NCBI GenBank assembly: GCA_016234805.1
Contig: JACRNU010000055.1
Location: 14,039-78,038, forward strand
Direction: 5' to 3'
Origin: Elusimicrobiota bacterium
GTDB lineage: Bacteria > Elusimicrobiota > Elusimicrobia > UBA1565 > UBA9628
DNA length: 64,000 nt
The translations under genes were made by a program, and so were the position numbers. Positions 44,223-56,915 of the stretch are shown here, in pieces. Under the pieces are notes generated by a model. The model was not told the origin of the DNA. It saw only the letters and a list, made by a program, of their open reading frames with translations, and made no database searches. How positions within the stretch are numbered: the first letter of the stretch is position 1; each line of letters starts with the position of its first letter.

Positions 44223-45497
44223 ATGAAAACCATTGGAACGGTTTGCCTGACAATCCTCGGCGCCATGACCCAGGCAGCCTGGGCGGCCGAAACCGTCAAC
44301 TGGCAGGTCACGGTGAGCGCCATGGAAGAGATCTCCACCCAGGCGTGGCAGGAGTACCCTGTGACCGTGGGCCTCAACAGTTCCGGCGGGGTCAAGAACT
44401 ACGCCCCCCCCCAAGGCACCACGCGCATCGACATCACCGTGGCCTTCCCCATCACCGCGTCCTGCACGAACTGCGGGGAGAGCTTCAGCGGTATCCCGCA
44501 CACCTACCCTTATTACGCCGTGTGGTACACCTACCTCGGCGGTGACATGCATAGGGTTCAGGTCTTCGGCGGGAACGTGGGTGGGGCGCTCTTGCGGGAG
44601 TCCGTCTTCTCACGGTACTGCCCCAACGGCTACCGCCAGATGTCCGTGATGTTCGACGCCCTGGTGACCTCCAAGGTCCAAGAACCCAGGGCCGCGAATG
44701 CGGTCGGGACTCTCGTGGGCGGCCAGGGCGAGGTCCTTTCCGCTCCCTGGCAGGCCGCCCCGCAGGCCATCAACGGAGGCACGCTCACCGGATACACCGC
44801 TTCCGTGGCGGGCGACAATCCCAAGGTCGAGATGAGCCTGACGGTCAGCGACAACATCTCCGGGACCGTGACCGCCAAGTTCCCGGCCTGCATCCCCGCT
44901 CCCGAGCTCTGCGACGGGGTGGATAATGACTGCGACGGCGACATCGACGAGGACCAGGGCGTGGCCCAGTGCGGAGCCGGCGCGTGCGCCAACTCGGTGC
45001 CGGCCTGCGTGGACGGCAAGCTCAATGCCTGCGCGCCCCTGCCGGCCTCGTCCGAAGTCTGCGACGGCGTGGACAACAACTGCGACGGCGCGGTGGACGA
45101 GGGGCTCGGGTCCGTATCCTGCGGCTCGGGCTTGTGCGCCAACACGGTGTCCGCCTGCGTCGGCGGATCCTCGCAGTCCTGCTCGCCGCTCCCGGGCTCG
45201 GCCGAAGCCTGCGACGGCATCGACAATGATTGCGACGGAGTGGTGGACAATGGATGTCCGAGAGGCATCCTCAACATCCTTGAACACTTCACCAACAAGG
45301 CGCTGCCGCCCGGCATCCAGAGGCTCATCGACAAGGTGAACTCCCGCGCCAACGCGGGGATCGCGCCCACGAGCGCGCTGGAGAACCGGGTCGACAAGGT
45401 CAACGACCGCCTCGACCAGCAGGCGGAGAAGAAGGCAGAGCAGGAGGCCAAGCAGGCTGCGCAGCAGGCCAAGCAGAACCAGAAGAAGAGCAAGTAG
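44223..45497 (+). CDS. Secreted protein with MopE-like (ExCDGxDNxCDG) metal-binding repeats
   Basis: Three Cys-rich repeats ELCDGVDNDCDG/EVCDGVDNNCDG/EACDGIDNDCDG; GGAGG RBS. Confidence 0.8.
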   Translation: MKTIGTVCLTILGAMTQAAWAAETVNWQVTVSAMEEISTQAWQEYPVTVGLNSSGGVKNYAPPQGTTRIDITVAFPITASCTNCGESFSGIPHTYPYYAVWYTYLGGDMHRVQVFGGNVGGALLRESVFSRYCPNGYRQMSVMFDALVTSKVQEPRAANAVGTLVGGQGEVLSAPWQAAPQAINGGTLTGYTASVAGDNPKVEMSLTVSDNISGTVTAKFPACIPAPELCDGVDNDCDGDIDEDQGVAQCGAGACANSVPACVDGKLNACAPLPASSEVCDGVDNNCDGAVDEGLGSVSCGSGLCANTVSACVGGSSQSCSPLPGSAEACDGIDNDCDGVVDNGCPRGILNILEHFTNKALPPGIQRLIDKVNSRANAGIAPTSALENRVDKVNDRLDQQAEKKAEQEAKQAAQQAKQNQKKSK

Positions 45498-45520
45498 CCG
45501 TGTGACAGGCACCATAGGCA

Positions 45521-45552
45521 CGCGCCGCTCCGAGGGAGCGGCGCGGCGATTT
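45521..45552 (+). terminator. Probable intrinsic terminator
   Basis: CGCGCCGCTCC-GAG-GGAGCGGCGCG hairpin after stop; weak U tract. Confidence 0.55.
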
Positions 45553-45665
45553 CCCGGCCAAGTGGGCCTTTAGACCCATCCAAGTCTGGGCCTTCCGGCC
45601 CTTTTCCGGGCCATAAGTCCTAGTACAATAGTCGCGTGGATCAATCCCGCCGAGGAGGCACCCCG

Positions 45666-46877
45666 ATGTTTCTTGGCCGCTTGCTGCTGCTCGTCGCTGT
45701 CCAGACGCTCTTCGTCGCGCAGGCCCGCGCGGTCTGCCCTTACGGCCCCACGGTGCGCAAGATCGTCTCCTGCAAGGCCTCCGTGTCCACCGCGGACTGC
45801 CGCAAGGTCGCGGAGAAGACGGGCTGCGAGGTCATCCGGGAGCTCGAGCTCATCAATGCCATCGTCATAGACGTGAGCGCCACCCAGGAGAAGTCCGCGG
45901 ACCTCGAACTGGCCGCGGCAGAGGAAGTCAAGATCGTGGAAGCGGACCGCAGGGTCAACTGGCTCAAGGGCCTCGGCGAATTCAAGCTTCCTGATATCAA
46001 GGATATCGTAACGCCCTTCCGGGCCGCGGTCGGGGCCGGGCCCGCGCCCAAGGCCGGGGAGGACCCGGAGCAGCCCTGGGGCATCCAGAGGGTCAACGCC
46101 GCCGGAGCCTGGGCCAAGACCCAGGGGGCGGGGGTGCGGGTCGCGGTCATCGACACCGGCATCGACTACAACCACCCGGACCTCAAGGGCAACGTCTACG
46201 GCGGGGCGAACGTGGTCAATGAAGCCAAGCCCAAGGACTACATGGACGACCAGGGGCACGGCACCCACGTTTCAGGCACCATCGCGGCCCTCAAGGACGG
46301 CAAGGGCGTGGTGGGAGTCGCGCCCAAGGCCAAGCTCTTCGGGGTCAAGGTCCTCGACGCGGAGGGCTCTGGCGACTACTCCACCATCATCGCCGGCATC
46401 CAGTGGGCGGTGAAGAACAAGATGCAGGTCGCGAACATGAGCCTCGGCGCTGAAGAGGGCATGGACGCCTTGCACGAGGCTATCAAGGCAGCGACCTCAG
46501 CCGGGCTGCTCATCGTGGCGGCCGCGGGCAACAACGGAGGAAAGGTCGGCTATCCAGCGGCTTACCCGGAGGTCGTGGCGGTCTCCGCCTCGAATTCGGC
46601 TGACAAGATCACCTCCTTCTCCAGCCGGGGGCCCGAGATCGCCTTCATCGCTCCTGGAGCTAACATCAAATCATCCTTCATGGGAGGAGGCTACGAGAAC
46701 CTGGACGGAACCTCCATGGCCTGCCCCCACGTGGTGGGCTTGGCTGCCCTGGCAGCAGGCCTGGGCCATAAGGGAGAGGCCATCCGTGGGGCCCTGGAGC
46801 GGGCAGCAACCCCGCTTCCTGGCCTGACCGCTACCCAACAGGGCAAGGGCTTCATCAACGCGGCGAAAATAAAATAG
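45666..46877 (+). CDS. Subtilisin (S8) serine peptidase with propeptide
   Basis: VIDTGID, HGTHVSG, AAAGN, GTSMACPH; GAGGAGG RBS. Confidence 0.95.
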   Translation: MFLGRLLLLVAVQTLFVAQARAVCPYGPTVRKIVSCKASVSTADCRKVAEKTGCEVIRELELINAIVIDVSATQEKSADLELAAAEEVKIVEADRRVNWLKGLGEFKLPDIKDIVTPFRAAVGAGPAPKAGEDPEQPWGIQRVNAAGAWAKTQGAGVRVAVIDTGIDYNHPDLKGNVYGGANVVNEAKPKDYMDDQGHGTHVSGTIAALKDGKGVVGVAPKAKLFGVKVLDAEGSGDYSTIIAGIQWAVKNKMQVANMSLGAEEGMDALHEAIKAATSAGLLIVAAAGNNGGKVGYPAAYPEVVAVSASNSADKITSFSSRGPEIAFIAPGANIKSSFMGGGYENLDGTSMACPHVVGLAALAAGLGHKGEAIRGALERAATPLPGLTATQQGKGFINAAKIK

Positions 46878-46957: not shown

Positions 46958-47203
46958 GGACCCAGACCGACACAAGACCAAGTTGTCCACAGACTATCCC
47001 CGTCCATTTCCCGTGGCCTTCCAAATTTCTACACTAATTGGTGCCAGACCTGCCGACCTGGCGTAAACAGGCCATATTAATATTGCTTGGCTTAACCTCG
47101 CCAGATATCATGTTTGTTAACTATTGGTGCCAGACATTGCTAATTGATTTCAATCAATGCACAACTTTCCCCAGGATATGCTATAATCTCATCCACAGAC
47201 CAG

Positions 47204-48190
47204 ATGACTGACACCACCAGCACCTCAAAGCCGTTCGAGAACACGGGTTACTGGGCCGTCATCCTTGGGGGTTCTTCGGGCTTTGGCCTGGCAACAGCCA
47301 AGCGCTTGTCTAGAGCCGGGATGAACATCCTCATCGGCCACAAGGACACGGAAGGCACGGTCGAGACCGTGCTCAAGCCTCACTTTGACGAGATCCGGGC
47401 CCAAGGGGTCAAGCTCGTCACCCACAACACCAACCTTTTCGATGAGGACGGACGGGGTGAGGTGTTCGAAAGCATCGCCCGGAACGCCGGCCCAGGAAAG
47501 GTCCACCTCTTCATGCACTCCATCGCCGCAGGGGCCTGCAAGCTCCTGATCGAGGACAAGGGGCCGGATTTCAAAGGCAAGGCCATGGCCGGGCTTGCGG
47601 ATGCCCTCAAGAAGGAAGGGGTGGCGGTCACCCCTGAAGTCCTCCGGAAGGCCGTGAACGAGGCCTTTCATGGCGGAGGGGCTGATGCCCTGCACACCCT
47701 GGCGGACAGCAGGATCCCCTACCGGGACACATTATTGGAAGAACCCGATCTTCAGCGCACCATCGGGATGATGGGCTACGACTACCTGCTTTGGGGCCGG
47801 GAACTGGCCAAGGAAGGCCTGCTCTCCAGATCCGCCAGGCTCGTGGGCCTCACCTCGGAAGGCAACACCGTGTCGTGGAAAGGCTACGCTGCCGTGTCCG
47901 CTGCCAAGTGCGGGCTCGAAGCCTGCGCCAAGGCCATGGCGGTCGAGCTCGGCCCCCTAGGGGTCCGGTGCTTCATCCTTCAACCCGGCATCACGGACAC
48001 CCCGGCCGGCAATGCCATACCGAATTTCGACTTGATGAAGGCTGAGGCGCGCATCCGCAACCCTTCGCGCCGCCTCACCACCCCGGAGGACGTGGCCGAG
48101 GTCGTGTGCGCCATGTGCCTGCCGGGGTTCGACTGGGTCAACGGCGCCGTCATCCGCGTGGACGGCGGCGAAGCAGTGTCAGGAGGCTGA
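47204..48190 (+). CDS. Enoyl-ACP reductase (FabI/FabL-type SDR) with internal insertion
   Basis: LGGSSGFG, HSIA, YAAVSAAK, RLTTPEDVA, VDGG; TGnTATAAT upstream. Confidence 0.85.
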   Translation: MTDTTSTSKPFENTGYWAVILGGSSGFGLATAKRLSRAGMNILIGHKDTEGTVETVLKPHFDEIRAQGVKLVTHNTNLFDEDGRGEVFESIARNAGPGKVHLFMHSIAAGACKLLIEDKGPDFKGKAMAGLADALKKEGVAVTPEVLRKAVNEAFHGGGADALHTLADSRIPYRDTLLEEPDLQRTIGMMGYDYLLWGRELAKEGLLSRSARLVGLTSEGNTVSWKGYAAVSAAKCGLEACAKAMAVELGPLGVRCFILQPGITDTPAGNAIPNFDLMKAEARIRNPSRRLTTPEDVAEVVCAMCLPGFDWVNGAVIRVDGGEAVSGG

Positions 48191-48196
48191 ACAAGG

Positions 48197-49107
48197 ATGA
48201 AGCTGAACATTCTCGGGATGGGCTGGTATCTGCCGAAGAACGAGATCACCAATGATTTCCTTCATAAGGAAGTCGGCCTCGAAAAGGGGCCGGACTGGGT
48301 GGACTCGCGCCTCGGCATCTACCGCAGGTTCTCCGTCCTGACCAAGGACTACATCCTCAAGACCAAGAACCAGAACCCCGCCCAAGCCATGGCCCACGCC
48401 CGCGCGCACGGGGAGACCCCGGTGACCATGGGCATCAAGGCGGCCAAGGACGCCCTCAAGATGGCCGGCGTCAGCCCGGACAAGGTCGGCATGGTCATGG
48501 CCAACAGCGACACCCCCTTCGACATGGTGCCGGCCACGGCCAACCTCATCGCCAAGGGCCTCGGCGTGCGCAACGGCGCGAACTGCGACGTCAACTGCGC
48601 CTGCTCGAGCTTTGCCAAGCACATGCAGATCCTCTCCGACACCCGCCCCGAACGGGTGCCCGAGTTCGTGCTCTGCGTCCAGACCGCGGCCTACACCGCG
48701 CGCATCGAGTATTCCCCCAACTCCATCGACCCCTACATCTTCGGCGACGGTGCCTGCGCCCAGGTCCTTTCCACCAAGCACCAGGGCAGGCTCACCGTGG
48801 AGCCCATGATTTTCGAGACCAACCCGGACGCGGCGGAGACCATCCTCCTCGATGCCGCCGGCCATGTGAGGCCTTCACCGTGGCCCACCAGGCCAACTAC
48901 GTGATGCAGAACTCCGTGCTCCACCACCTGAACCTGCCCGAGAAAAAGCATCTCCGGAACGTCCATGAGCAGGGCAACATCGCGGCAGCCGGGGCGCCTT
49001 CGGCCATCGCCCAGAACCTCCACCGGTTCAACAAGGGCGACAAGCTCGTTTACGCGGTCCTCGGCGCGGGCCTGGCCTGGGGCGGCGGGTACATGGAGGC
49101 CAACTAG
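48197..49107 (+). pseudogene. fabH: 3-oxoacyl-ACP synthase III split by deletion/frameshift
   Basis: NCACSSF and FGDG in the 48197 frame; HQAN, GN and GAGLAWG in a different frame from ~48871. Confidence 0.8.
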
Positions 49108-49110
49108 GGC

Positions 49111-49833
49111 ATGGACGAGATCGCGGTCGTCACCGGAGCGGGCGGAGGCATCGGCAGCGCGGTCGCGCTCATGATCCACGATAAATCCGAGGGCGCGCTC
49201 AAGCTCGCCCTGTGCGACATCAATAAGAACGCGCTCGCCGAACTCGCGGGCCGCATCCCAGGGTCCTTCCCCGTGGTTTCGGACATCACGACCGAGGCGG
49301 GACGCAAGGCCCTCGTGGACGCGGTCCTGGCCAAGGGCACGCCCTCGGTCCTGGTCAACAACGCGGGCATCGACCGGCCCCACGAGCCCTGCCTCGCCAT
49401 CCTGGAGTCGTCCTACGACACGCTCCTCAACCTCAACCTCAAGGCCCCGGCCTTCCTCATGAGGGCCTTCTGCAAGGAGATGATGGCCGCGGGCGGGGGA
49501 GCCGTGGTCAACATCAGCTCGGTCCTGGCCAAGCACGCCCTGACCGGCTCCGCCCTCTACCGGGTGAGCAAGGCGGGCCTCGAGGCCCTGACGAAGCAGT
49601 TCGCGGCCGAGTTCGGACCCCGGGGCGTGCGGGTCAACGCCGTTGCGCCCGGCTTCATCATGACTCCCATGACCGCCAACATCCCGGATGAGACCAAGGA
49701 GAAGATCCGCTCCATGATCGCGCTCGGCGAGTTCGGCACGCCCGAGGCCGTGGCCGAGGCGGTATGGCACCTGGTCGAGAACCAGTACATCAACGGCGTG
49801 GTATTGCCGGTGGATGGAGGAATGGTCCTGTGA
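49111..49833 (+). CDS. fabG: 3-oxoacyl-ACP reductase
   Basis: TGAGGGIG, NNAGI, YRVSK, VAPGFI. Confidence 0.85.
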   Translation: MDEIAVVTGAGGGIGSAVALMIHDKSEGALKLALCDINKNALAELAGRIPGSFPVVSDITTEAGRKALVDAVLAKGTPSVLVNNAGIDRPHEPCLAILESSYDTLLNLNLKAPAFLMRAFCKEMMAAGGGAVVNISSVLAKHALTGSALYRVSKAGLEALTKQFAAEFGPRGVRVNAVAPGFIMTPMTANIPDETKEKIRSMIALGEFGTPEAVAEAVWHLVENQYINGVVLPVDGGMVL

Positions 49834-50315
49834 GCCTCTCCAATGACGAGATCCTGGCCCTGGTCCCCCAGCAGCGGCCCATGCGGTTCATCGACGACAT
49901 CCTCGAGCTCGACGGGGACCACATCGTGGGCTCCTACACCTGGAAGGAGGAGGACTGCGCCGGCCACTTCCCGGGCAACCCCGTGGTCCCGGGAGTCAAG
50001 CTCATCGAGATGGCGGCCCAGGTGGGCAACGTGGCCTGGGGCATCTACCTCATGTCCCTGGAATCCTCGCCCGAGCAGGTCCGCGACATGGTGGGCTTCT
50101 TCACCCGGATCGAGCAGGGGACCTTCAAGCGGGTGGTCCGGCCAGGGGACAAGGTCCGCGCCGAGGCCCAGTTCGGAGACGAGGGCTACTTCCGGTCCAA
50201 CAAGGTGGCCTCCTGCGTGGAGATCCGCTTCGAAGGCGGGCCCAAGGACGGTGAGCTCGCCTTCGAGGGCTTCACCTGCGGGATGTGGGTCCCGCGCGCG
50301 GAGGTCCGTGATTAG
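49830..50315 (+). CDS. fabZ: 3-hydroxyacyl-ACP dehydratase
   Basis: PQQRPMRFID, GHFPGNPVVPGVKLIEMAAQ. Confidence 0.85.
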   Translation: MSLSNDEILALVPQQRPMRFIDDILELDGDHIVGSYTWKEEDCAGHFPGNPVVPGVKLIEMAAQVGNVAWGIYLMSLESSPEQVRDMVGFFTRIEQGTFKRVVRPGDKVRAEAQFGDEGYFRSNKVASCVEIRFEGGPKDGELAFEGFTCGMWVPRAEVRD

Positions 50316-50332
50316 GCCTGGAGCGCGCGCGG

Positions 50333-50383
50333 AGGTGCCAGGTTCGGGCATCAACATGATGCCCCAGTTCGAACTTGGCACCT
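50333..50383. repeat. REP-like hairpin (GGTGCCAG family)
   Basis: AGGTGCCAGGTTCG / CGAACTTGGCACCT arms with an inner GGGCATC/GATGCCC stem. Confidence 0.7.
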
Positions 50384-50396
50384 GGGCACAGCTATC

Positions 50397-51710
50397 ATGA
50401 TGATGAAACGCGTCGTCGTCACCGGCATGGGCGTCGTGGCCGCCAACGGCGTGGGCCTAGCCGCGTTCCGTTCGGCGCTCAAAGCGGGCCGCAGCGGCAT
50501 CAAGCGGCACGAGCACCTCCAGAAGCTCAATTTCTCCTGCCAGATCGGCGGCATCCCGGACCTCACCGAGGAGGACATCCTCAAGGTCCTGCCCGAGCCC
50601 GAGTCGCGCAAGCTCGGCGAGGCCCAGGTCTACACTGCCCTGGCCGCGGTCGAGTGCGCCCGGAGCGCCGGCATCCACGCCGACCTCTACAACGGGTTCA
50701 AGGATTCGGCCGTGGACTGGAACACCGGCGTGATCATGGGCTGCGGCATCGGCGGCATGGACACCATCTTCGAGGAGATGGGCCCGGCCATGGCTTCGGC
50801 CGAGGAAGCCGAGCCCGGCCGGGGACCTGCTGCCATGGGCACGGATGTCGTGCCCAAGATCATGGGGAGCTCGACGAGCGTCGTGATCGGCCGGTTCCTG
50901 GGCCTGGGCAACCTCACGAGCAGCAACAGCTCGGCCTGCAACACCGGCACCGAAGCCGTCTTCGCCGGCTGGAACCATCTTCAGATGGGCTATGCGGACG
51001 CCATGTACGTGGGCGGGGCCGAGGGCTCCCACTACGGCATCTGGGCAGGGTTCGACGCCATGCGCGACGTGCTCTGCTCCAAGTTCAACGAGACCCCGGA
51101 GCGCGGCTCCCAGCCCATGGGAGCGCTCGCCTGCGGGTTCGTGCCAGGCTCGGGCGCCGCGGTCCTGAGGATCGAGACCCTCGAGGCCGCGCAGAAGCGC
51201 GGGGCCCCCATCCTGGCCGAGCTCCTTGCCGCCTACTGCAACTCAGGCGGCCAGCGCGACGGCGGGTCCATGACCTTCCCCAACCCCGAGGGTGTGACCC
51301 GGTGCATCCGCCGGGTCCTCAAGGACGCCGCAGTCGAGCCCTCGGCCATCAGCCTCATCAACGGACACCTGACCTCCACGGGCGCCGACCCTCAGGAGGT
51401 CTCGAGCTGGATGAGCGCGCTCGAACTTGCGCCGGAGAAGTTCCCCCTCATCCAGTCCACGAAGTCCATGATCGGCCACGGCCTGGGCGCGGCCGGGGCC
51501 CTGGAGTCCGTGGCCGTGGTGGACCAGCTCGGCCAGGGCTACGTCCACCCCTCCATCAACTGCGAGGAGACCCACCCGCGCATCAAGGCAATCGAGCGGA
51601 GCATCCCGCGCTCTTGCATGCAGAAGCGCCTCGACCTGGCCATCAAGGCGTCCTTCGGATTTGGAGACGTGAATGGCTGTCTGCTGTACAAACGCTGGGA
51701 CGGGAGGTAA
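50397..51710 (+). CDS. fabF: Beta-ketoacyl-ACP synthase II-like
   Basis: RVVVTGMG, SSACNTG, INGHLTST, IGHGLGAAG, SFGFG. Confidence 0.88.
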   Translation: MMMKRVVVTGMGVVAANGVGLAAFRSALKAGRSGIKRHEHLQKLNFSCQIGGIPDLTEEDILKVLPEPESRKLGEAQVYTALAAVECARSAGIHADLYNGFKDSAVDWNTGVIMGCGIGGMDTIFEEMGPAMASAEEAEPGRGPAAMGTDVVPKIMGSSTSVVIGRFLGLGNLTSSNSSACNTGTEAVFAGWNHLQMGYADAMYVGGAEGSHYGIWAGFDAMRDVLCSKFNETPERGSQPMGALACGFVPGSGAAVLRIETLEAAQKRGAPILAELLAAYCNSGGQRDGGSMTFPNPEGVTRCIRRVLKDAAVEPSAISLINGHLTSTGADPQEVSSWMSALELAPEKFPLIQSTKSMIGHGLGAAGALESVAVVDQLGQGYVHPSINCEETHPRIKAIERSIPRSCMQKRLDLAIKASFGFGDVNGCLLYKRWDGR

Positions 51711-51719
51711 TTGTAAACA

Positions 51720-52667
51720 ATGGCATTCAAGCGCAAGGAAACGACGGTCGAAGCCGTGGACCTCAGCACGATCACGCCCGAGGACGCGCAGACGCGGATC
51801 ATCGCCGGGGTCAAGAAGTACGCCACCAATGAGGCCAACTGGTCCAAGGCCGACCGCAACACGCCCTACCTGGGCCACATCACCGGGATGGGCATCGAGT
51901 CCGCGAACCTGGCCGACATCACCATGTCCATCGAGCGCCAGTTCCTGACCAAGAAGACCAAGAAGGTCCCGGTCGCCCTAAAGGGCTCTCCTTCGGGTGG
52001 GGGCTCCGAGACCGAGTTCACGCTGGAAGACGGCGACCTCGGCAAGCTCCGCATCCTCGAGGGCCAGGACTCCGTCATGGCCACCCCGGGCCTGACCATC
52101 CAGAAGCTCATGGAGCTCGGCCACCTGCCGACGAACGCCTCCTACCTCGACGGCACGGCTTCCTTCGCCACGATCGTCTCCGTGGGAGCGGGCCACCGCC
52201 TCACGGACGCCCTGCGCAAGACGGCCCTCCGCATGGAGAAGTCCCAGCCCGCGGAGAAGACCGAGGCGCGCGCGAACCTCGAGTCCCTCATCAAGCAGGC
52301 GCGGGACTTCGAGACCCTGCTCGGCGACCCGGCGGCCCTGGCCGCGTCCAAGCAAGGTGACTTCCAGACGGACAAGAACTCGCTGGAAGCCCTGACCCAC
52401 GAGCTCTCCATCGTCAACGAGAAGCTCAAGGGCGTCACCTCGAGCGACGACCCCTCCCGCTCGACGAGCCTGCGCGCGGAAGAGTCGCAGATCCGCACCC
52501 GGATCAGGATGATGCGCCAGAAACTGACGGTCTCGGAAGAGACCGCCCGCGGCGCCGGGGTCCGAAAGTCCGTGGACACGGCGAAGTTCCAGGAGGTCCG
52601 AGCTCTGCTCGCGGAGACCATCAAGCTCGCCGTAGAGGCGCTGGCCCAGGTCCCTGCCGGCTGCTGA
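51720..52667 (+). CDS. Divergent acyl carrier protein-like domain fused to a coiled-coil tail
   Basis: GMGIESANLADITMSIERQF resembles ACP helix II (Ppant Ser); located between fabF and the PPTase; heptad-rich C-terminal half. Confidence 0.55.
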   Translation: MAFKRKETTVEAVDLSTITPEDAQTRIIAGVKKYATNEANWSKADRNTPYLGHITGMGIESANLADITMSIERQFLTKKTKKVPVALKGSPSGGGSETEFTLEDGDLGKLRILEGQDSVMATPGLTIQKLMELGHLPTNASYLDGTASFATIVSVGAGHRLTDALRKTALRMEKSQPAEKTEARANLESLIKQARDFETLLGDPAALAASKQGDFQTDKNSLEALTHELSIVNEKLKGVTSSDDPSRSTSLRAEESQIRTRIRMMRQKLTVSEETARGAGVRKSVDTAKFQEVRALLAETIKLAVEALAQVPAGC

Positions 52668-52690
52668 ACGGACGCTGACCAGGTCCGGTC

Positions 52691-52723
52691 CCCGTGGGGG
52701 AGGGCATCCCCCTCCCCCACGGG
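52691..52723. repeat. Perfect 14-bp-stem intergenic hairpin
   Basis: CCCGTGGGGGAGGG-CATCC-CCCTCCCCCACGGG. Confidence 0.75.
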
Positions 52724-52748
52724 CCGGTTCCCTGCGGCAGCGTCGCCC

Positions 52749-54149
52749 ATGACGCTCACCTCTGCGGACATCCGCAACCTCAGGCTCCAGAGGCTCCTGG
52801 GGGACATCGCCGTCCCCTTCACCCACGTGTTCCTCTCCCTGGCCTCGCGCTATTTCGGGTACCGATTTCGGGACCTCGAAGCCTTCCGCCGCAAGGTCTG
52901 GAAGGCCCTCGACGGGCACGACGGCCCGGTCATATGGGCCGCCAACCACCTGACCCTCTGGGACTCCTTCGTCATCTTCTGGGCGGTCTTCCCCCTCCTC
53001 AGGACCCTGGAGGGCCGGCGCCTTCCCTGGAACACCCCTGAGCACACCAACTACTACAGGAACGGCGGGTGGTTCAAGTGCCGCGTCATCCGGGTCTTCA
53101 TGTACCTCTGCCGCTGCATCCCCTTCCTGCGCGGGGGCGAGGACGAGTTCTCGGTCCAGTGGCGGCAGATCGCCTTTGAGAAGTGCGTCTGGGTCCTCTC
53201 CGAGGGAGGCACTGTCTTCGTCTTCCCAGAAGCCACCCGCGCCCGCAACGGCTGGTTCGAGGCTGACAAGCCCAAGGACTTTCTCGGCAGCCTGTGTGTT
53301 CGCGTTCCGCGTGCCAAGGTCCTTTGCCTCTACCTGAGAGGCGAGGGCCAGGCAGGCACCACCTCCTACCCGGCTTGGGGCGAGACCTTCCGCATGGACG
53401 CCGAGCTCTGGGACCCTGCCACGGGCCCGGCCAGCACGGCCCGGTCCATCGCGGCCGGCCTCTTCACCCGCGTCGGAGCCCTGCAGGAAGCCTGGTTCAG
53501 CGCAAGCACCCTGCTCAAGAACTGCTCCGGCAACGACATCGTGGACCTCAAGGGTCACCTGCTCCGCGAGCACTTCAGCGACGACCTTCTGGACATCGAC
53601 CCGGAGTGGGCAGGCCGCCTGCTCACCTCGAAAGAGCTCGAGTACCTCGGAGCCCGACCCGCGGCCGAGCTCTTTTCGACCTTCTGGCGCTTCCACGCTG
53701 CCAAGGAAGCGGCCTCCAAAGCCCTGGCCCAGGCCGGGGTCAAGGTCCTGCCCGGAGGGTTCTCCACTATCGAGGTGGACCTCTTCCAGAACCGGGCCCG
53801 GCACCTGCCCACCCTGCTGGAGTGCCGCCTGCGCTTCACCGACGACGACGCGGACAAGATCCACTGCGTCGCGGTCCTCCGCGGGGGCCGCATCGGAGAC
53901 GACTCCGAGCCGGGCGACGTGCTCTGGAAGGTCGCCGAGGTCCCGCCGGGCGAGTCCGGCTCAGGGTTCTGCCGCGACCTAGCCCTGGACCTCATCGCCG
54001 AGTCCTCCGACGACATCTCCCCGGCCTCCCTCTCCTTCACCGAGATCGACGACATCCCGCGCGTGATGCGCGCAGGCAAGCCCCAGGACTGGGGCGTGTC
54101 CATCTCGCACGCGGGAAGGTATGTTGCGTGCAGCTTCATGGTGTCATGA
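52749..54149 (+). CDS. PlsC-like acyltransferase fused to 4'-phosphopantetheinyl transferase
   Basis: ANHLTLWDS and FPEATR (LPLAT); GNDIVD, FWRFHAAKEAASKA, SISHAG (PPTase). Confidence 0.85.
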   Translation: MTLTSADIRNLRLQRLLGDIAVPFTHVFLSLASRYFGYRFRDLEAFRRKVWKALDGHDGPVIWAANHLTLWDSFVIFWAVFPLLRTLEGRRLPWNTPEHTNYYRNGGWFKCRVIRVFMYLCRCIPFLRGGEDEFSVQWRQIAFEKCVWVLSEGGTVFVFPEATRARNGWFEADKPKDFLGSLCVRVPRAKVLCLYLRGEGQAGTTSYPAWGETFRMDAELWDPATGPASTARSIAAGLFTRVGALQEAWFSASTLLKNCSGNDIVDLKGHLLREHFSDDLLDIDPEWAGRLLTSKELEYLGARPAAELFSTFWRFHAAKEAASKALAQAGVKVLPGGFSTIEVDLFQNRARHLPTLLECRLRFTDDDADKIHCVAVLRGGRIGDDSEPGDVLWKVAEVPPGESGSGFCRDLALDLIAESSDDISPASLSFTEIDDIPRVMRAGKPQDWGVSISHAGRYVACSFMVS

Positions 54150-55582
54150 CCTGCGTGAGAGGGGAAAAAGGCATCCACAGGATTCCCCTCGCCTTGCCTC
54201 GGTCTTTGGAACCCCGAAGGGAGGACCTGGAGGAAGCCTTGCTGTCCGCCCAGCGCCGACTGAAGGACTTCGCCGACCGGAACGGCTGGGCCGATCTCGT
54301 CAAGGATAGATTCGCCGACCAAGCCGAGATTTTCAATGACAAAGCCGAGTTCGATGCGGCGCTGATCCGGCTGACGGGCGCCGACCCTTCGACCAAGCTG
54401 CCCAAGACCTATTCCGCCGCTCTGGAGAAAGGCGTCTTCTTGTCCGTCTCGCCCAGGCTGTACCAAGAGAACTACCCGCAAGGCTCCGAGGACGGCGCCT
54501 TCGAGAAACTGGTCGCCCATGAGATGGCTCACCGACTGCACATCCGTATTCTGAAAGGAGATGAGGATGCCATGGGGCCGATCTGGTTCTACGAGGGATT
54601 CGCCATCCATGCCGCAGGGCAGTTCGAAACGCTTCCGATCCGGTTGAGCCCCGAGGAGATCCAGGAAGTGGTCGACAGCGCGACAAGAGGCAGCTACGCG
54701 AAATACGGCGCCGCGTTCCGGCATTTCCTGGAGAAAGCTCCCATCCAGGAGCTGGTGAAAAGGGCCGGAGGCAAGGACTTCCCGGACTACCTGAGACGGA
54801 TTGACAGGCCTTTTCTTCTGACCCAGGCCACGAAAGGCGACTGCAAGGGAACCATCCTGCTGGTCCAAGGCAGCGCGCCCTTCAATATCGACGGCCGCAT
54901 CCCGGTCAAGGGCCGCTCCGCGTATCACAACATCGAGTTTTACAGGGATATGGCCGACGCCCTCAACTCCTACGGCTGGGATGTCGTCCGGTATGCCAAG
55001 CCCGGCGTCTACAAGGATCGGATCGATCTTAATGAATACGACAAAACCGACCTTGCGACCATCATGCGCCAGTTGAACGCCATCTGGAACGAGATGCCGT
55101 CCCGGAAGCCCCGCATCATCTTCGCTTGGAGCGAAGGGACTCTGCACGCTTCGCGATTGCCGCTTTCTGAAGCCAGCGCGGTCATTCTCCTGGGAGCGAT
55201 ATCAACGAACATCAGGGATGTGATTCTCGCGCAAGGGGGATCGCCAAAAGAAATAAAGGCCATCAGGAAAATGGGCCGCGAAGAGATGTTGGGGATAGAT
55301 CGCCCTGCCGGAAGGCTTCTCGATGAGCTCGCCATGGCGGACAACTGGCGGTTCTTCGAGAAGCACCCAGATCTTCCCATGCTGATCCTGCATGGGGAAG
55401 AAGACACGGAGGTTCCGGCCTCCCATGCGAAGACATGGAAAACCATGCTGCCCAGGCACCGCATCGACCTTGTCTTGAAGCCGTCCGGCAATCACATGTT
55501 CGGAGTCGCGCAATCGCCGGATATCGCTGCCCTGGCAGGGACAATCCAAGGATGGCTGGCGGAGACCCTTCAGACCAAATGA
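54146..55582 (+). CDS. HExxH gluzincin-like domain + alpha/beta hydrolase fusion
   Basis: AHEMAH..PIWFYEG; FAWSEG, LHGEEDTEV, GNHMF; overlaps both neighbours (ATGA). Confidence 0.65.
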   Translation: MTCVRGEKGIHRIPLALPRSLEPRREDLEEALLSAQRRLKDFADRNGWADLVKDRFADQAEIFNDKAEFDAALIRLTGADPSTKLPKTYSAALEKGVFLSVSPRLYQENYPQGSEDGAFEKLVAHEMAHRLHIRILKGDEDAMGPIWFYEGFAIHAAGQFETLPIRLSPEEIQEVVDSATRGSYAKYGAAFRHFLEKAPIQELVKRAGGKDFPDYLRRIDRPFLLTQATKGDCKGTILLVQGSAPFNIDGRIPVKGRSAYHNIEFYRDMADALNSYGWDVVRYAKPGVYKDRIDLNEYDKTDLATIMRQLNAIWNEMPSRKPRIIFAWSEGTLHASRLPLSEASAVILLGAISTNIRDVILAQGGSPKEIKAIRKMGREEMLGIDRPAGRLLDELAMADNWRFFEKHPDLPMLILHGEEDTEVPASHAKTWKTMLPRHRIDLVLKPSGNHMFGVAQSPDIAALAGTIQGWLAETLQTK

Positions 55583-56517
55583 GATACTGCATCCTCTTCG
55601 CCGGCCAATCCGTGCAGGAGTCCGGCATGTGCCGGGAGCTCTGGAAGCTCCCCGCGGCCAGGGAGATCCTCGACCGCTTGAAGCCCTCCCTCGGCTCCGA
55701 CCTCGAATACGTCACGACCGAGATGCCCGAACCCGAACTGGCCAGGACCTTCAACGCCCAGCGGGCCATCCACGCCCACCACCTGGGCCACTGGTTCGCC
55801 TACAAAGCCGCGCATCCGGGCCTGGTCCTCGACGGGAGCGTGGGCCACTCCATGGGCATCGCGGCCGCGCTCGTGGCTGCCGGGGCCATGAGCGTGGAGG
55901 ACTCAGGCGCCTTCATCCGCGCCCGGGCCCAGGCCTTCTCAGAAGTGTGCGCGGCCTTCAAGGAGCCCATGGGCCTGGCAGCGGTCATGACGGACTTCCT
56001 GGGCGACTACATGGAGAAGATCGAATCCTTCCCTGGCGTGAGCCTGGCCCTGCACAACACCATCGGCCGCGGCACAGCCGGAGGCACCTTGGCCAGCCTC
56101 GAGGCTTTCGCACGGCACAGCCAAGCCGAAGGGTGGCCCATGAAGATCAAGGTGCTCAAGGTCGAGGGCCCCTATCACACCGCGGCTTTCATGGCTGCCG
56201 AGCCGGCCCTGCTCCAGGCCCTGGCCGGCATCAGGCTCGACTCTCCCAAGGTCCCGGTCTTCATGGGGACTTCGGGCAAGTCTGAGACCGACCCGTCGGA
56301 GATCAGCCGTCTGCTCGCTGCCCAGCCCCACACGCGGGAGAAGCACTTCGACGCGGTCTGGGCCGCCTGCGACTCGGGGTGCAGGAACTTCCTCGAGATC
56401 GCGCACAAGCCCCAGCCCGTGACCTGGATCAGCGACCAGCTTCAGGACGAGGAAGGCGGGCTCATGGCAGGCGTGACCACGCTCGCGGTCAAGACCGCGG
56501 ACCTCGCCGCCCACTGA
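55579..56517 (+). CDS. fabD: Malonyl-CoA:ACP transacylase
   Basis: LFAGQSVQ, AQRAI, GHSMG, LKVEGPYHT. Confidence 0.88.
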   Translation: MRYCILFAGQSVQESGMCRELWKLPAAREILDRLKPSLGSDLEYVTTEMPEPELARTFNAQRAIHAHHLGHWFAYKAAHPGLVLDGSVGHSMGIAAALVAAGAMSVEDSGAFIRARAQAFSEVCAAFKEPMGLAAVMTDFLGDYMEKIESFPGVSLALHNTIGRGTAGGTLASLEAFARHSQAEGWPMKIKVLKVEGPYHTAAFMAAEPALLQALAGIRLDSPKVPVFMGTSGKSETDPSEISRLLAAQPHTREKHFDAVWAACDSGCRNFLEIAHKPQPVTWISDQLQDEEGGLMAGVTTLAVKTADLAAH

Positions 56518-56657
56518 GCACGGCCCCGGGCCGCAGTCGGCCTCAGGGAAAAGTGGGTGAGGTCGAGCGGGGAATGGTTGCTTTTCGACGGGAAATCGTG
56601 TTCAATAAGGTTACCGTCGGGCACGCTGAGGCCCGGCGCATAGGAGAACCGACCAAC

Positions 56658-56915
56658 ATGGCGAAGAAGGCGAACACGGCGTTTATGAAGCCCCTCACCC
56701 CCAGCGAGAAGCTCGCGCAGGTCGTCGGCTGCAAGCCCCTGCCGCGCACCGAAGTCGTCAAGAAGCTCTGGGCCTATATCAAGAAGAACGGCCTGCAGGA
56801 CAAGAAGAACAGGCGGAACATCAACGCGGACGCGGCGCTGAAGACGGTCTTCGGCGGAAAGTCCGTGGTCAACATGTTCGAGATGACCAAGCTGGTCAGC
56901 AAGCACCTCAGCTGA
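56658..56915 (+). CDS. SWIB/MDM2 domain protein
   Basis: AFMKPLTPS..LPRTEVVKKLWAYIKKNGLQD..MFEMTKLVSKHL; AGGAG RBS. Confidence 0.92.
   Translation: MAKKANTAFMKPLTPSEKLAQVVGCKPLPRTEVVKKLWAYIKKNGLQDKKNRRNINADAALKTVFGGKSVVNMFEMTKLVSKHLS

Follow-up and report, generated by a model that had tools for sequence, protein, structure and literature searches.

Type II fatty-acid synthase-like genes grouped with the gene of a carrier-like protein in a groundwater Elusimicrobiota genome

The locus and its genes

The DNA considered here is a stretch of 64,000 nucleotides (nt), called the window throughout, from contig JACRNU010000055.1 (C110) of an Elusimicrobiota genome of groundwater origin (GCA_016234805.1, here G000), a metagenome-assembled genome (MAG) of 3.42 Mb in 128 contigs that is 92% complete. 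The GC content of the window is about 66%, and the homologues of its proteins carry the labels Elusimicrobia or Elusimicrobiota. At positions 47204-56517 of the plus strand lies an operon-like run of ten closely packed co-directional genes (Table 1). They encode enzymes of the type II fatty-acid synthase (FAS) kind, among them ketoacyl synthases (KS) and a short-chain dehydrogenase/reductase (SDR) resembling enoyl reductases (ER), together with a protein similar in predicted fold to the acyl carrier protein (ACP), called ACPL here, and a fusion of a PlsC-type acyltransferase with a phosphopantetheinyl transferase (PPTase). The reading that we favour, with confidence a little above even, is that this run is a complete operon-like type II FAS cassette that brings its own carrier and that in this bacterial family also serves as the main fatty-acid synthase.

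The initial annotation of this DNA, made from its letters alone, had described the named genes as co-directional with overlapping stops and starts, and this description holds. All of them are on the plus strand, the stop codon of the FabG-like gene and the GTG start codon of the FabZ-like gene share the letters GTGA (49830-49833), and a 4-nt overlap is found at the junction of the PlsC-PPTase and hydrolase genes and again at that of the hydrolase and FabD-like genes. An open reading frame (ORF) at 49843-50400 was discarded as the FabZ gene, being in the wrong frame and without a family match; the true frame is that of the ORF at 49764-50315. The promoter-like site that precedes the run is a consensus match only, since two such sites were found where 1.0 was expected from shuffled sequences.

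Table 1. Features of the cassette, in window coordinates (aa, amino acids)
Feature	Position	Strand	Basis or remarks
Promoter-like site	47158..47187	+	TGCACA-18-TATAAT, upstream TG, just before the ER start codon
ER-like SDR, 328 aa	47204..48190	+	PF13561, FabL-like, Y-x6-K
FabH-like KS III, broken	48197..49107	+	Two frames: 48197-48904 and 48880-49107
FabG-like ketoacyl reductase, 240 aa	49111..49833	+	PF13561, YxxxK
FabZ-like hotdog dehydratase, about 161 aa	49830..50315	+	PF07977
KS, FabB/F type, 437 aa	50397..51710	+	PF00109 and PF02801
ACPL, carrier-like protein, 315 aa	51720..52667	+	Predicted fold and gene context
PlsC-PPTase fusion, 466 aa	52749..54149	+	PF01553 and PF01648
HExxH and alpha/beta-hydrolase, 478 aa	54146..55582	+	Weak Hydrolase_4 and Peptidase_S9 matches
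FabD-like malonyl transferase, 312 aa	55579..56517	+	PF00698, GHSMG

Conservation and spread of the cassette

The order ER-FabH (one or two copies)-FabG-FabZ-KS-ACPL-PlsC/PPTase-FabD was found in all 10 loci of eight genomes of the family. In genomes G012 and G013 the cassette is split into one part running from the ER to the KS and another formed by ACPL, PlsC/PPTase and FabD. A scan of species-representative genomes returned 70 cassette loci with recurring gene order, mostly from Elusimicrobiota, and because the order recurs in so many loci the arrangement is far from what chance would give. The KS gene stands immediately before ACPL in 61 of the 70; eight loci begin with ACPL and one (L084) is rearranged. 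A PPTase-bearing gene follows ACPL in 67 loci (L142, at 56.6 bits, being counted), and the other three gene strings end at ACPL. Within the family, ACPL and the fusion co-occur in the identical 21 of 26 genomes, and both are missing from all five genomes of one genus, g5. Of the 274 further genomes in the phylum sample, none was found to have the cassette, and a search of 201 genomes from the phylum to which G322 belongs turned it up in 2.

A quick maximum-likelihood tree of 45 rows was built from 20 cassette KS (19 of the 64 from the loci, plus that of the window), 8 canonical FabF, E. coli FabB, 14 other KS and two Pfa KS as outgroup. The cassette KS form a single clade (SH-aLRT 100, stem 1.19) apart from canonical FabF; a grouping with housekeeping FabF, which the initial annotation had listed among the outcomes that would speak against it, is not seen. 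This clade joins E. coli FabB weakly (support 85), a placement flagged as long branches meeting. KS copies labelled Planctomycetota, Acidobacteriota or unnamed nest within the Elusimicrobiota copies. Because of these nested copies and the scarcity of the cassette in the phylum of G322, the sequence data fit a horizontal spread of the whole cassette as a unit.

Four genomes (G321, G322, G323 and G324) carry the cassette together with a canonical fabD-fabF pair scoring over the cut-offs, and in G322 both are on the same contig, C4. G324 (locus L110, labelled Acidobacteriota) was rejected as independent evidence of coexistence, because its cassette KS is 71% identical to that of the window and stands on a 580-kb contig, and the bin may therefore be mixed.

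Enzymes of the cassette

The ER-like SDR contains an insertion that separates its Rossmann half from its catalytic half, and its match to PF13561 (4.9e-31) is confined to the C-terminal half. Its best NCBIfam model is FabL, at 92.3 bits against a cut-off of 328, its closest solved relative is B. subtilis FabL (3oic, 60.7 bits), and its translation reads YAAVSAAK at the Y-x6-K motif, not YxxxK. Judged by these matches, the protein is FabL-like and would not be a member of the FabL equivalog. When E. coli FabI was compared with G000 by tblastn, the best match was this same SDR (31% over 125 aa).

The FabG-like reductase matches PF13561 at 2.7e-50 and TIGR01830 at 179 bits (cut-off 297.75); its identity to E. 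coli FabG is 31%, and that of the canonical FabG encoded on contig C121 of the same genome is 47.5%. The FabZ-like protein exceeds the PF07977 cut-off (38.3 bits against 23) and reaches 68.4 of the 113 bits set for the FabZ model NF000582, with HFPGNPVVPGV and LIEMAAQ read from its translation. The FabB/F-type KS scores 254.6 bits with TIGR03150 (cut-off 493.75) and 231.6 with the FabB model NF005935 (cut-off 630). Its identity to E. coli FabF is about 33%, as is that to the canonical FabF from genome G007, and Cys181, His324, His361 and Lys356 are invariant in its alignment with these two proteins; among solved structures, FabB and FabF match it about equally, near 180 bits. The FabD-like protein matches PF00698 (1.9e-24, 87.2 bits against 32.7) and TIGR00128 (86.9 bits against 260.9), is 25% identical to E. 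coli FabD, and shows GHSMG, GQS.Q and PYHT, with the conserved His and Gln, in its translation. The catalytic motifs of all the enzyme families of the cassette appear to be intact.

In this assembly the FabH-like gene is broken. Where an orthologue has about 35 codons between "...AGH" and "VAHQAN...", only 14 nt stand here, so that about 91 nt are missing near 48865-48880; the cassette FabH orthologues are single intact ORFs of about 330 aa. The break was checked by placing Logan contigs from four runs on the region. No contig of these runs spans 48865-48917. In runs X3 and X4, contigs from strains 95-99% similar carry about 93 extra letters at 48868, and a contig in run X1 runs on past 48864 with sequence coding for the missing FabH segment. 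Because contigs of close strains carry the missing segment, the break is confined to this assembly or population; it could be a real deletion or a mis-join or mis-assembly.

Another FabH-like gene belongs to a TetR-SDR-FabH-like operon on contig C64 of G000 (47919-50331; positions 3919-6331 of L081), next to an acetyl-CoA hydrolase/transferase. This gene is the best match of the genome to the FabH model (193 bits) and could be a stand-in for the broken cassette FabH. In loci L066, L067 and L073, the cassette FabH is tandemly duplicated.

The initial annotation had counted the HExxH-hydrolase as a member of the cluster, and this did not stand. The gene has no match among the 70 related loci, nor in any of the 5 genomes examined for it, of which 3 belong to the same genus, and the hydrolase is a species-specific insertion outside the conserved cassette. 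The GC fraction of 54001-56000 is 0.614, with flanks of 0.65-0.68. Most of its 31 homologues span about half of the query or less and are about as long as hydrolases that stand alone usually are; 10 of the 31 have a Pfam hydrolase family on record. P0262 and P0266 are the only two homologues that seem to share more than the hydrolase half, the fusion being rare. Unrelated inserts of about 1.3-4.8 kb occur between the fusion gene and FabD in several relatives (L066, L074 and L125), and this junction looks like a recurrent insertion site.

The PlsC-PPTase fusion

The fusion of PlsC and PPTase named in the initial annotation is well borne out, both domains scoring above their Pfam cut-offs and their motifs being invariant in 30 sequences. 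The acyltransferase half (residues 1 to about 250) matches PF01553 at 33.3 bits (cut-off 23) and contains N66-H67...D72 (HX4D) and F157, P160, E161, A162 and R164 (FPEAxR, 157-164). The PPTase half (about 258-466) matches PF01648 at 27.3 bits (cut-off 25), with the motifs GNDxVDL, KEAxxKA and SxSH and the invariant residues G261/D263/D266, K319/E320/K324/A325 and S453/H454. The profile of the fusion family matches 3qmn_A, a structure of AcpS, at E 0.0013. Between KEA and SxSH the fusion has about 130 residues, a longer spacing than that of AcpS. In four divergent loci (L084, L140, L142 and L143), a free PPTase gene comes right after ACPL; its product has about 200 aa and corresponds to residues 261-466 of the fusion. 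Of the observations on gene context that speak for ACPL as a carrier, this one is the strongest.

The PlsC domain of the fusion was discarded as the sole lysophospholipid acyltransferase (LPLAT) of G000, since three other PF01553 proteins are present, two of them in frames of 942 and 1129 aa. In G013 (2.0 Mb, 97% complete), the fusion is the sole PF01553 match, and there its PlsC domain may, by this count of domains, also be the housekeeping PlsC.

The carrier-like protein ACPL

The full ACPL protein matches no Pfam or NCBIfam family. Its full-length AF2 model (pLDDT 84.7) contains helices at 20-34, 38-41, 52-55 and 61-74, a hairpin at 75-109 and short helices up to residue 144, so that residues from about 15 to 140 are predicted to adopt an ACP fold with a beta-hairpin insertion (75-109). 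Residues 149-309 are modelled as a bundle of five long helices. The length of the hairpin varies among members of the family. With VIA-align, residues 15-138 of the model superpose on chain 6zk9_j with a Z of 9.5 and a root-mean-square deviation of 2.1, 82 of 82 residues being aligned. The N-terminal domain was also modelled alone, and this second model was used solely for its pattern of structure matches: the top 50 are nearly all chains of ACPs or of peptidyl carrier proteins (PCPs), the best at Z 6.1, and 6lvt, 4ihf_G, 4dxe_H, 6sga_Fc and 7a23_k are chains named as ACPs among them.

All 32 sequences of one alignment have Ser61, which belongs to the motif GMGIES, and so do all 12 of another, whose identities reach down to 21%. 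According to DSSP, a helix starts at residue 61, and this helix (61-74) aligns with helix II of ACPs. Ser61 is preceded by Glu, or by Pro in P0258, where ACPs usually have Asp. ACPL may be pantetheinylated on Ser61. A complex prediction of the PPTase domain with the N-terminal domain of ACPL scored 0.25, against a mark of 0.32.

Other searches dealt with the helical part or returned nothing usable. The ACPL profile gave weak matches to PDB sequences in the helical region only (best E 0.042); Foldseek with the full model found nothing in the PDB at E <= 0.001, helical-bundle matches being dominant; and the ESM Atlas held no usable match for residues 1-148 or for P0010. The initial annotation had called ACPL an ACP-like/coiled-coil fusion. 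The ACP fold in the model and the invariant Ser61 agree with the first half of that name, which finds no sequence-family match, and the coiled coil is a modelled five-helix bundle. Thus, ACPL shows the four-helix carrier fold in its model and is not recognised by the PP-binding sequence models; its ACP-likeness is one of predicted fold and gene context and is without sequence-family support.

Fatty-acid genes elsewhere in the genome and family

Searches of G000 with hidden Markov models (HMMs) revealed no FabB/F-type KS or stand-alone FabD besides those of the cassette, and tblastn with the E. coli proteins placed all matches of FabF (32%), FabB (30%) and FabD (25%) on C110. The remaining KS and acyltransferase (AT) matches fall in an ORF resembling PfaC on contig C60 (26694-33820; L080), which encodes at least 2356 aa with KS, KS/chain-length factor (CLF) and AT domains and several FabA-type dehydratase domains, and which is cut off by the end of the contig. 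A multi-ACP gene of PfaA type was not found in the MAG. Contig C121 carries plsX-fabG-acpP-rnc, with an AcpP 72% identical to that of E. coli, and contig C74 carries lpxC-fabZ-lpxA-lpxI; LpxB, LpxD and PlsY are also encoded. Three other PPTases are present, two of AcpS type and one longer and Sfp-like. A separate housekeeping set, raised in the initial annotation as a thing to look for, therefore exists in part: acpP with fabG, fabZ and two AcpS genes lie elsewhere in the genome, but no other FabB/F-type KS or FabD was found.

The closed genome G320 (CP096137.1) gives the same picture, its best match to the FabF model being the cassette KS (268.7 bits) and no FabD reaching the cut-off, so that the absences are not explained by the MAG being incomplete. 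In the 31 genomes searched from the order, the cut-off for FabF is exceeded in 2 and that for FabD in none, and acpP is present in 30. In genus g5, canonical FabF (642-651 bits) is present in four of the five genomes, all five being without ACPL and the fusion; none of the other family genomes searched with the FabF model exceeded the cut-off. No genome of the family combines the cassette with a canonical FabF, the two being mutually exclusive. One g5 genome, G007, keeps a cassette-type FabH-FabD pair (60-65% identity) beside the same aminotransferase gene that lies downstream of the cassette in the window, and since it does so without ACPL, that FabD must work with AcpP. G012 (98% complete) and G013 each show a single PP-binding match and have no KS besides that of the cassette.

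In the sister families f2 and f3 (G019-G030), most genomes have no stand-alone FabF-type KS or FabD over the cut-off, and ACPL was not found in any of the five that were sampled for it. The best KS and AT matches of these families lie in ORFs of about 1500-2970 aa. One of these, scanned with Pfam (L079; G020:C12:24000-36000), is PfaA-like, with 2883 aa and the domain order KS-AT-ACPx3-ketoreductase-dehydratase.

Main synthase, dedicated pathway or other role

According to the favoured reading, the PPTase half of the fusion would attach phosphopantetheine to Ser61 of ACPL and the FabD-like enzyme would load malonyl groups. Condensation would be carried out by the FabH-like enzyme and the FabB/F-type KS, and a full reduction cycle by the FabG-like, FabZ-like and FabL/I-like enzymes would lead to saturated acyl chains, which the PlsC-type half would off-load from the carrier to a membrane lyso-lipid acceptor. 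What the analysis establishes is which genes are present, that their catalytic motifs are intact, the modelled fold, how the cassette is distributed and its exclusivity with canonical FabF; the pantetheinylation of ACPL, the carrier used by each enzyme, the acceptor of the PlsC domain and the product we infer. The cassette would be an orthogonal and horizontally mobile unit that stands alongside canonical FAS II in some other lineages; in G000 and its family, canonical FabF and FabD would be gone, and AcpP, FabG, FabZ, PlsX/PlsY and the lipid A genes would have been kept. Since canonical FabF and FabD are missing and AcpP is kept, the FabD and KS of the cassette would also have to serve AcpP and bulk fatty-acid synthesis.

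A bolder proposal, which we hold tentatively and at somewhat less than even chances, is that ACPL represents a new class of ACP, with a hairpin-bearing core and a 160-residue bundle for tethering or organisation, and that together with the PPTase it would form an orthogonal mobile FAS which displaced canonical FabF and FabD throughout the family and makes essential fatty acids.

Different observations weigh against the favoured reading. The N-terminal domains of ACPL (n=12) gave no match to the PP-binding family (PF00550) even at E <= 10. When they were compared by hhalign with canonical AcpPs (28 of them, and a widened set that includes one PfaA segment that is not an ACP), the alignment was in register, with Ser61 on the serine of the DSL motif, at P values of 0.08 and 0.2 that are not significant. 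An exhaustive HMMER search of 1.84 billion representatives returned 22 clusters, all of the ACPL family and none a canonical ACP. The N-terminal domain modelled alone is poor (pLDDT 47.8), and chain j of 6zk9, the mitochondrial ACP to judge by its companion matches, is named as such by no tool. With regard to the enzymes, the cassette FabH is broken in this assembly, G000 is an incomplete MAG, and of the sequencing runs listed for this stretch none was of RNA. Because it holds canonical AcpP, FabG, FabZ, two AcpS and an Sfp-like PPTase, the enzymes of the cassette could act on AcpP alone. The FabI profile, an equivalog model, is weak, with none of 14 control genomes over its cut-off; a search of 5 genomes for FabK found none, and FabV lay outside the search, so that the cassette ER is not established as the only ER. 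Finally, neither FabF nor the cassette is present in families f2 and f3, which have Pfa-like synthases only, and a FabF-type KS may therefore not be indispensable in the order.

The initial annotation had proposed a self-contained unit making a special lipid beside ordinary fatty-acid synthesis. The unit does bring a carrier-like protein and a PPTase of its own, and with them an additional acyltransferase of PlsC type. The idea of an extra pathway finds a parallel in G321-G324, but no complete housekeeping FAS was found beside the cassette in G000 or in closed G320. In its pure form, this proposal holds that the cassette is a dedicated special-lipid pathway on ACPL and that bulk fatty acids come from a Pfa-like megasynthase or from uptake, being reloaded by Aas-type acyl-ACP synthetases. 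It gains from the coexistence with canonical fabD and fabF in those four genomes (on the same contig in G322), from the carrier and PPTase that belong to the cassette, from an acyltransferase additional to the three other PF01553 proteins of G000, from the PfaC-like ORF on C60 and from the fact that f2 and f3 get by without a FabF-type KS. We nevertheless think it unlikely. The single PP-binding match in each of G012 and G013 leaves no room for a Pfa-type multi-ACP protein there, and their only KS is that of the cassette. Moreover, lipid A genes that require 3-hydroxyacyl-ACP are present, the exclusivity of cassette and canonical FabF within the family is what redundancy predicts, and genus g5 retains cassette-type FabD and FabH without ACPL.

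Another possibility, to which we give rather little credit, is that ACPL is no carrier at all but a scaffold, membrane tether or regulator with an ACP-like fold, the enzymes using AcpP and the fused PPTase serving AcpP or another protein. The silence of the PP-binding models, the non-significant hhalign result and the isolation of the family in the HMMER searches are what this explanation would lead one to expect, and so are the 72% identity of the AcpP of G000 to that of E. coli, the retention of acpP in 30 of 31 genomes across the order and the C-terminal half with its long helices, which is without counterpart in known ACPs. However, Ser61 stands exactly at the N-terminus of the helix II-equivalent and is kept in all 12 rows of the divergent alignment, ACPL adjoins a PPTase whether fused or free, two AcpS-type genes and one longer PPTase are already present in the genome, and ACPL and the fusion co-occur in 21 of 21 genomes.

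That the cassette is simply a fast-diverged, vertically inherited housekeeping fab operon of Elusimicrobiota without separate identity is very improbable: it is the sole source of FabD and FabB/F-type KS in G000 and in its closed relative G320 and is conserved through most of the family, but G322 has it together with canonical fabD-fabF on one contig, its FabG and FabZ are duplicated by canonical copies in the same genome, the clade of its KS has a long stem and lies apart from canonical FabF, and it was met in no other genome of the phylum sample.

Comparison with known systems

The canonical FAS II of E. coli (fabH-fabD-fabG-acpP-fabF, plus fabZ and fabI) has the same seven activities as separate proteins, and the common motifs include the Cys-His-His triad of KS, GHSxG of FabD, YxxxK of the ketoreductase, Y-x6-K of the ER and the His/Glu of FabZ. 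However, the cassette enzymes score far under the curated cut-offs and are 25-33% identical to the E. coli proteins, the cassette carrier has 315 aa and is undetected by PP-binding models, the KS belongs to a separate clade, and the operon has a built-in PPTase and a PlsC-type acyltransferase.

In rhizobia, the AcpXL cluster, which provides the very-long-chain acyl group of lipid A, combines a dedicated carrier with KS and dehydratase genes of its own and with an acyltransferase for off-loading, and stands beside a housekeeping FAS. AcpXL is an ordinary small ACP, and its cluster is not known to contain FabD, FabH, ER or PPTase, the acyltransferase being of the LpxL type. The likeness to the cassette lies in the dedicated carrier with its own KS, dehydratase and off-loading acyltransferase; the acyltransferase of the cassette is of PlsC type, and no complete housekeeping FAS accompanies the cassette in G000.

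The mycobacterial FAS-II with AcpM is a second FAS II that has its own FabD, FabH and KS and extends FAS-I products. Its carrier has a C-terminal extension, a short disordered tail, and is recognised by PP-binding models, and neither a fused PPTase nor a fused acyltransferase is known from this system. In ACPL, by contrast, the extension is modelled as a folded helical bundle of 160 residues. AcpM chains are among the fold matches of the N-terminal domain of ACPL.

Aryl-polyene (APE) clusters use FAS-like type II enzymes, dedicated ACPs and acyltransferases of the LPLAT family; they are not known to include an enoyl reductase and contain ammonia lyase, methyltransferase and export genes. In contrast, the cassette encodes a full reducing cycle and is without ammonia lyase, methyltransferase and export genes. 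The structure of the ApeE ACP is match 50 for the model of the N-terminal domain. The ACP of ladderane-producing anammox bacteria (7auf) matches the same domain in fold with a Z of 5.6 and 22% identity. Both are divergent stand-alone carrier-type proteins from specialised clusters of FAS type, but 7auf has 89 aa and is without the hairpin insertion or the helical domain. Ladderane clusters typically have radical-SAM genes, and none were seen at the cassette.

What we regard as new about this type II FAS is the architecture of its carrier, together with the fusion. In the literature searched, supplements aside, there is no description of this cassette, of an ACP with a helical-bundle extension or of a PlsC-PPTase fusion. 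Within the main text of a preprint on groundwater Elusimicrobia (10.1101/765248), the passages on fatty acids, lipids, acyl carriers and polyketides gave one match, on beta-oxidation.

If the favoured reading is true, a whole bacterial family makes its membranes with a FAS whose carrier is missed by all the standard ACP models and whose KS and FabD score too low for the cut-offs used in curated annotation, and automated metabolic reconstructions would call these organisms unable to make fatty acids. The family would also be a natural case of one FAS II replacing another, the evidence being the reciprocal loss within it. The carrier would have a new architecture, and the fusion would unite activation and off-loading in one compact enzyme. 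Furthermore, the cassette would be portable and self-sufficient, and could be expressed as an orthogonal lipid pathway.

Neighbouring genes

Upstream of the cassette, at 44223-46877 of the window, lie genes for a protein with MopE-type metal-binding repeats and for an S8 subtilase, a pair that also precedes the cassette in several related loci. Downstream, an ORF at 56379-56915 encodes a SWIB/MDM2 domain at residues 104-177; its start as listed falls within the end of the FabD-like gene, so that the true start is probably later. This ORF is followed by genes for a rubrerythrin, MnmA and a class-III aminotransferase, the last of which remains linked to FabD in many relatives and in genus g5.

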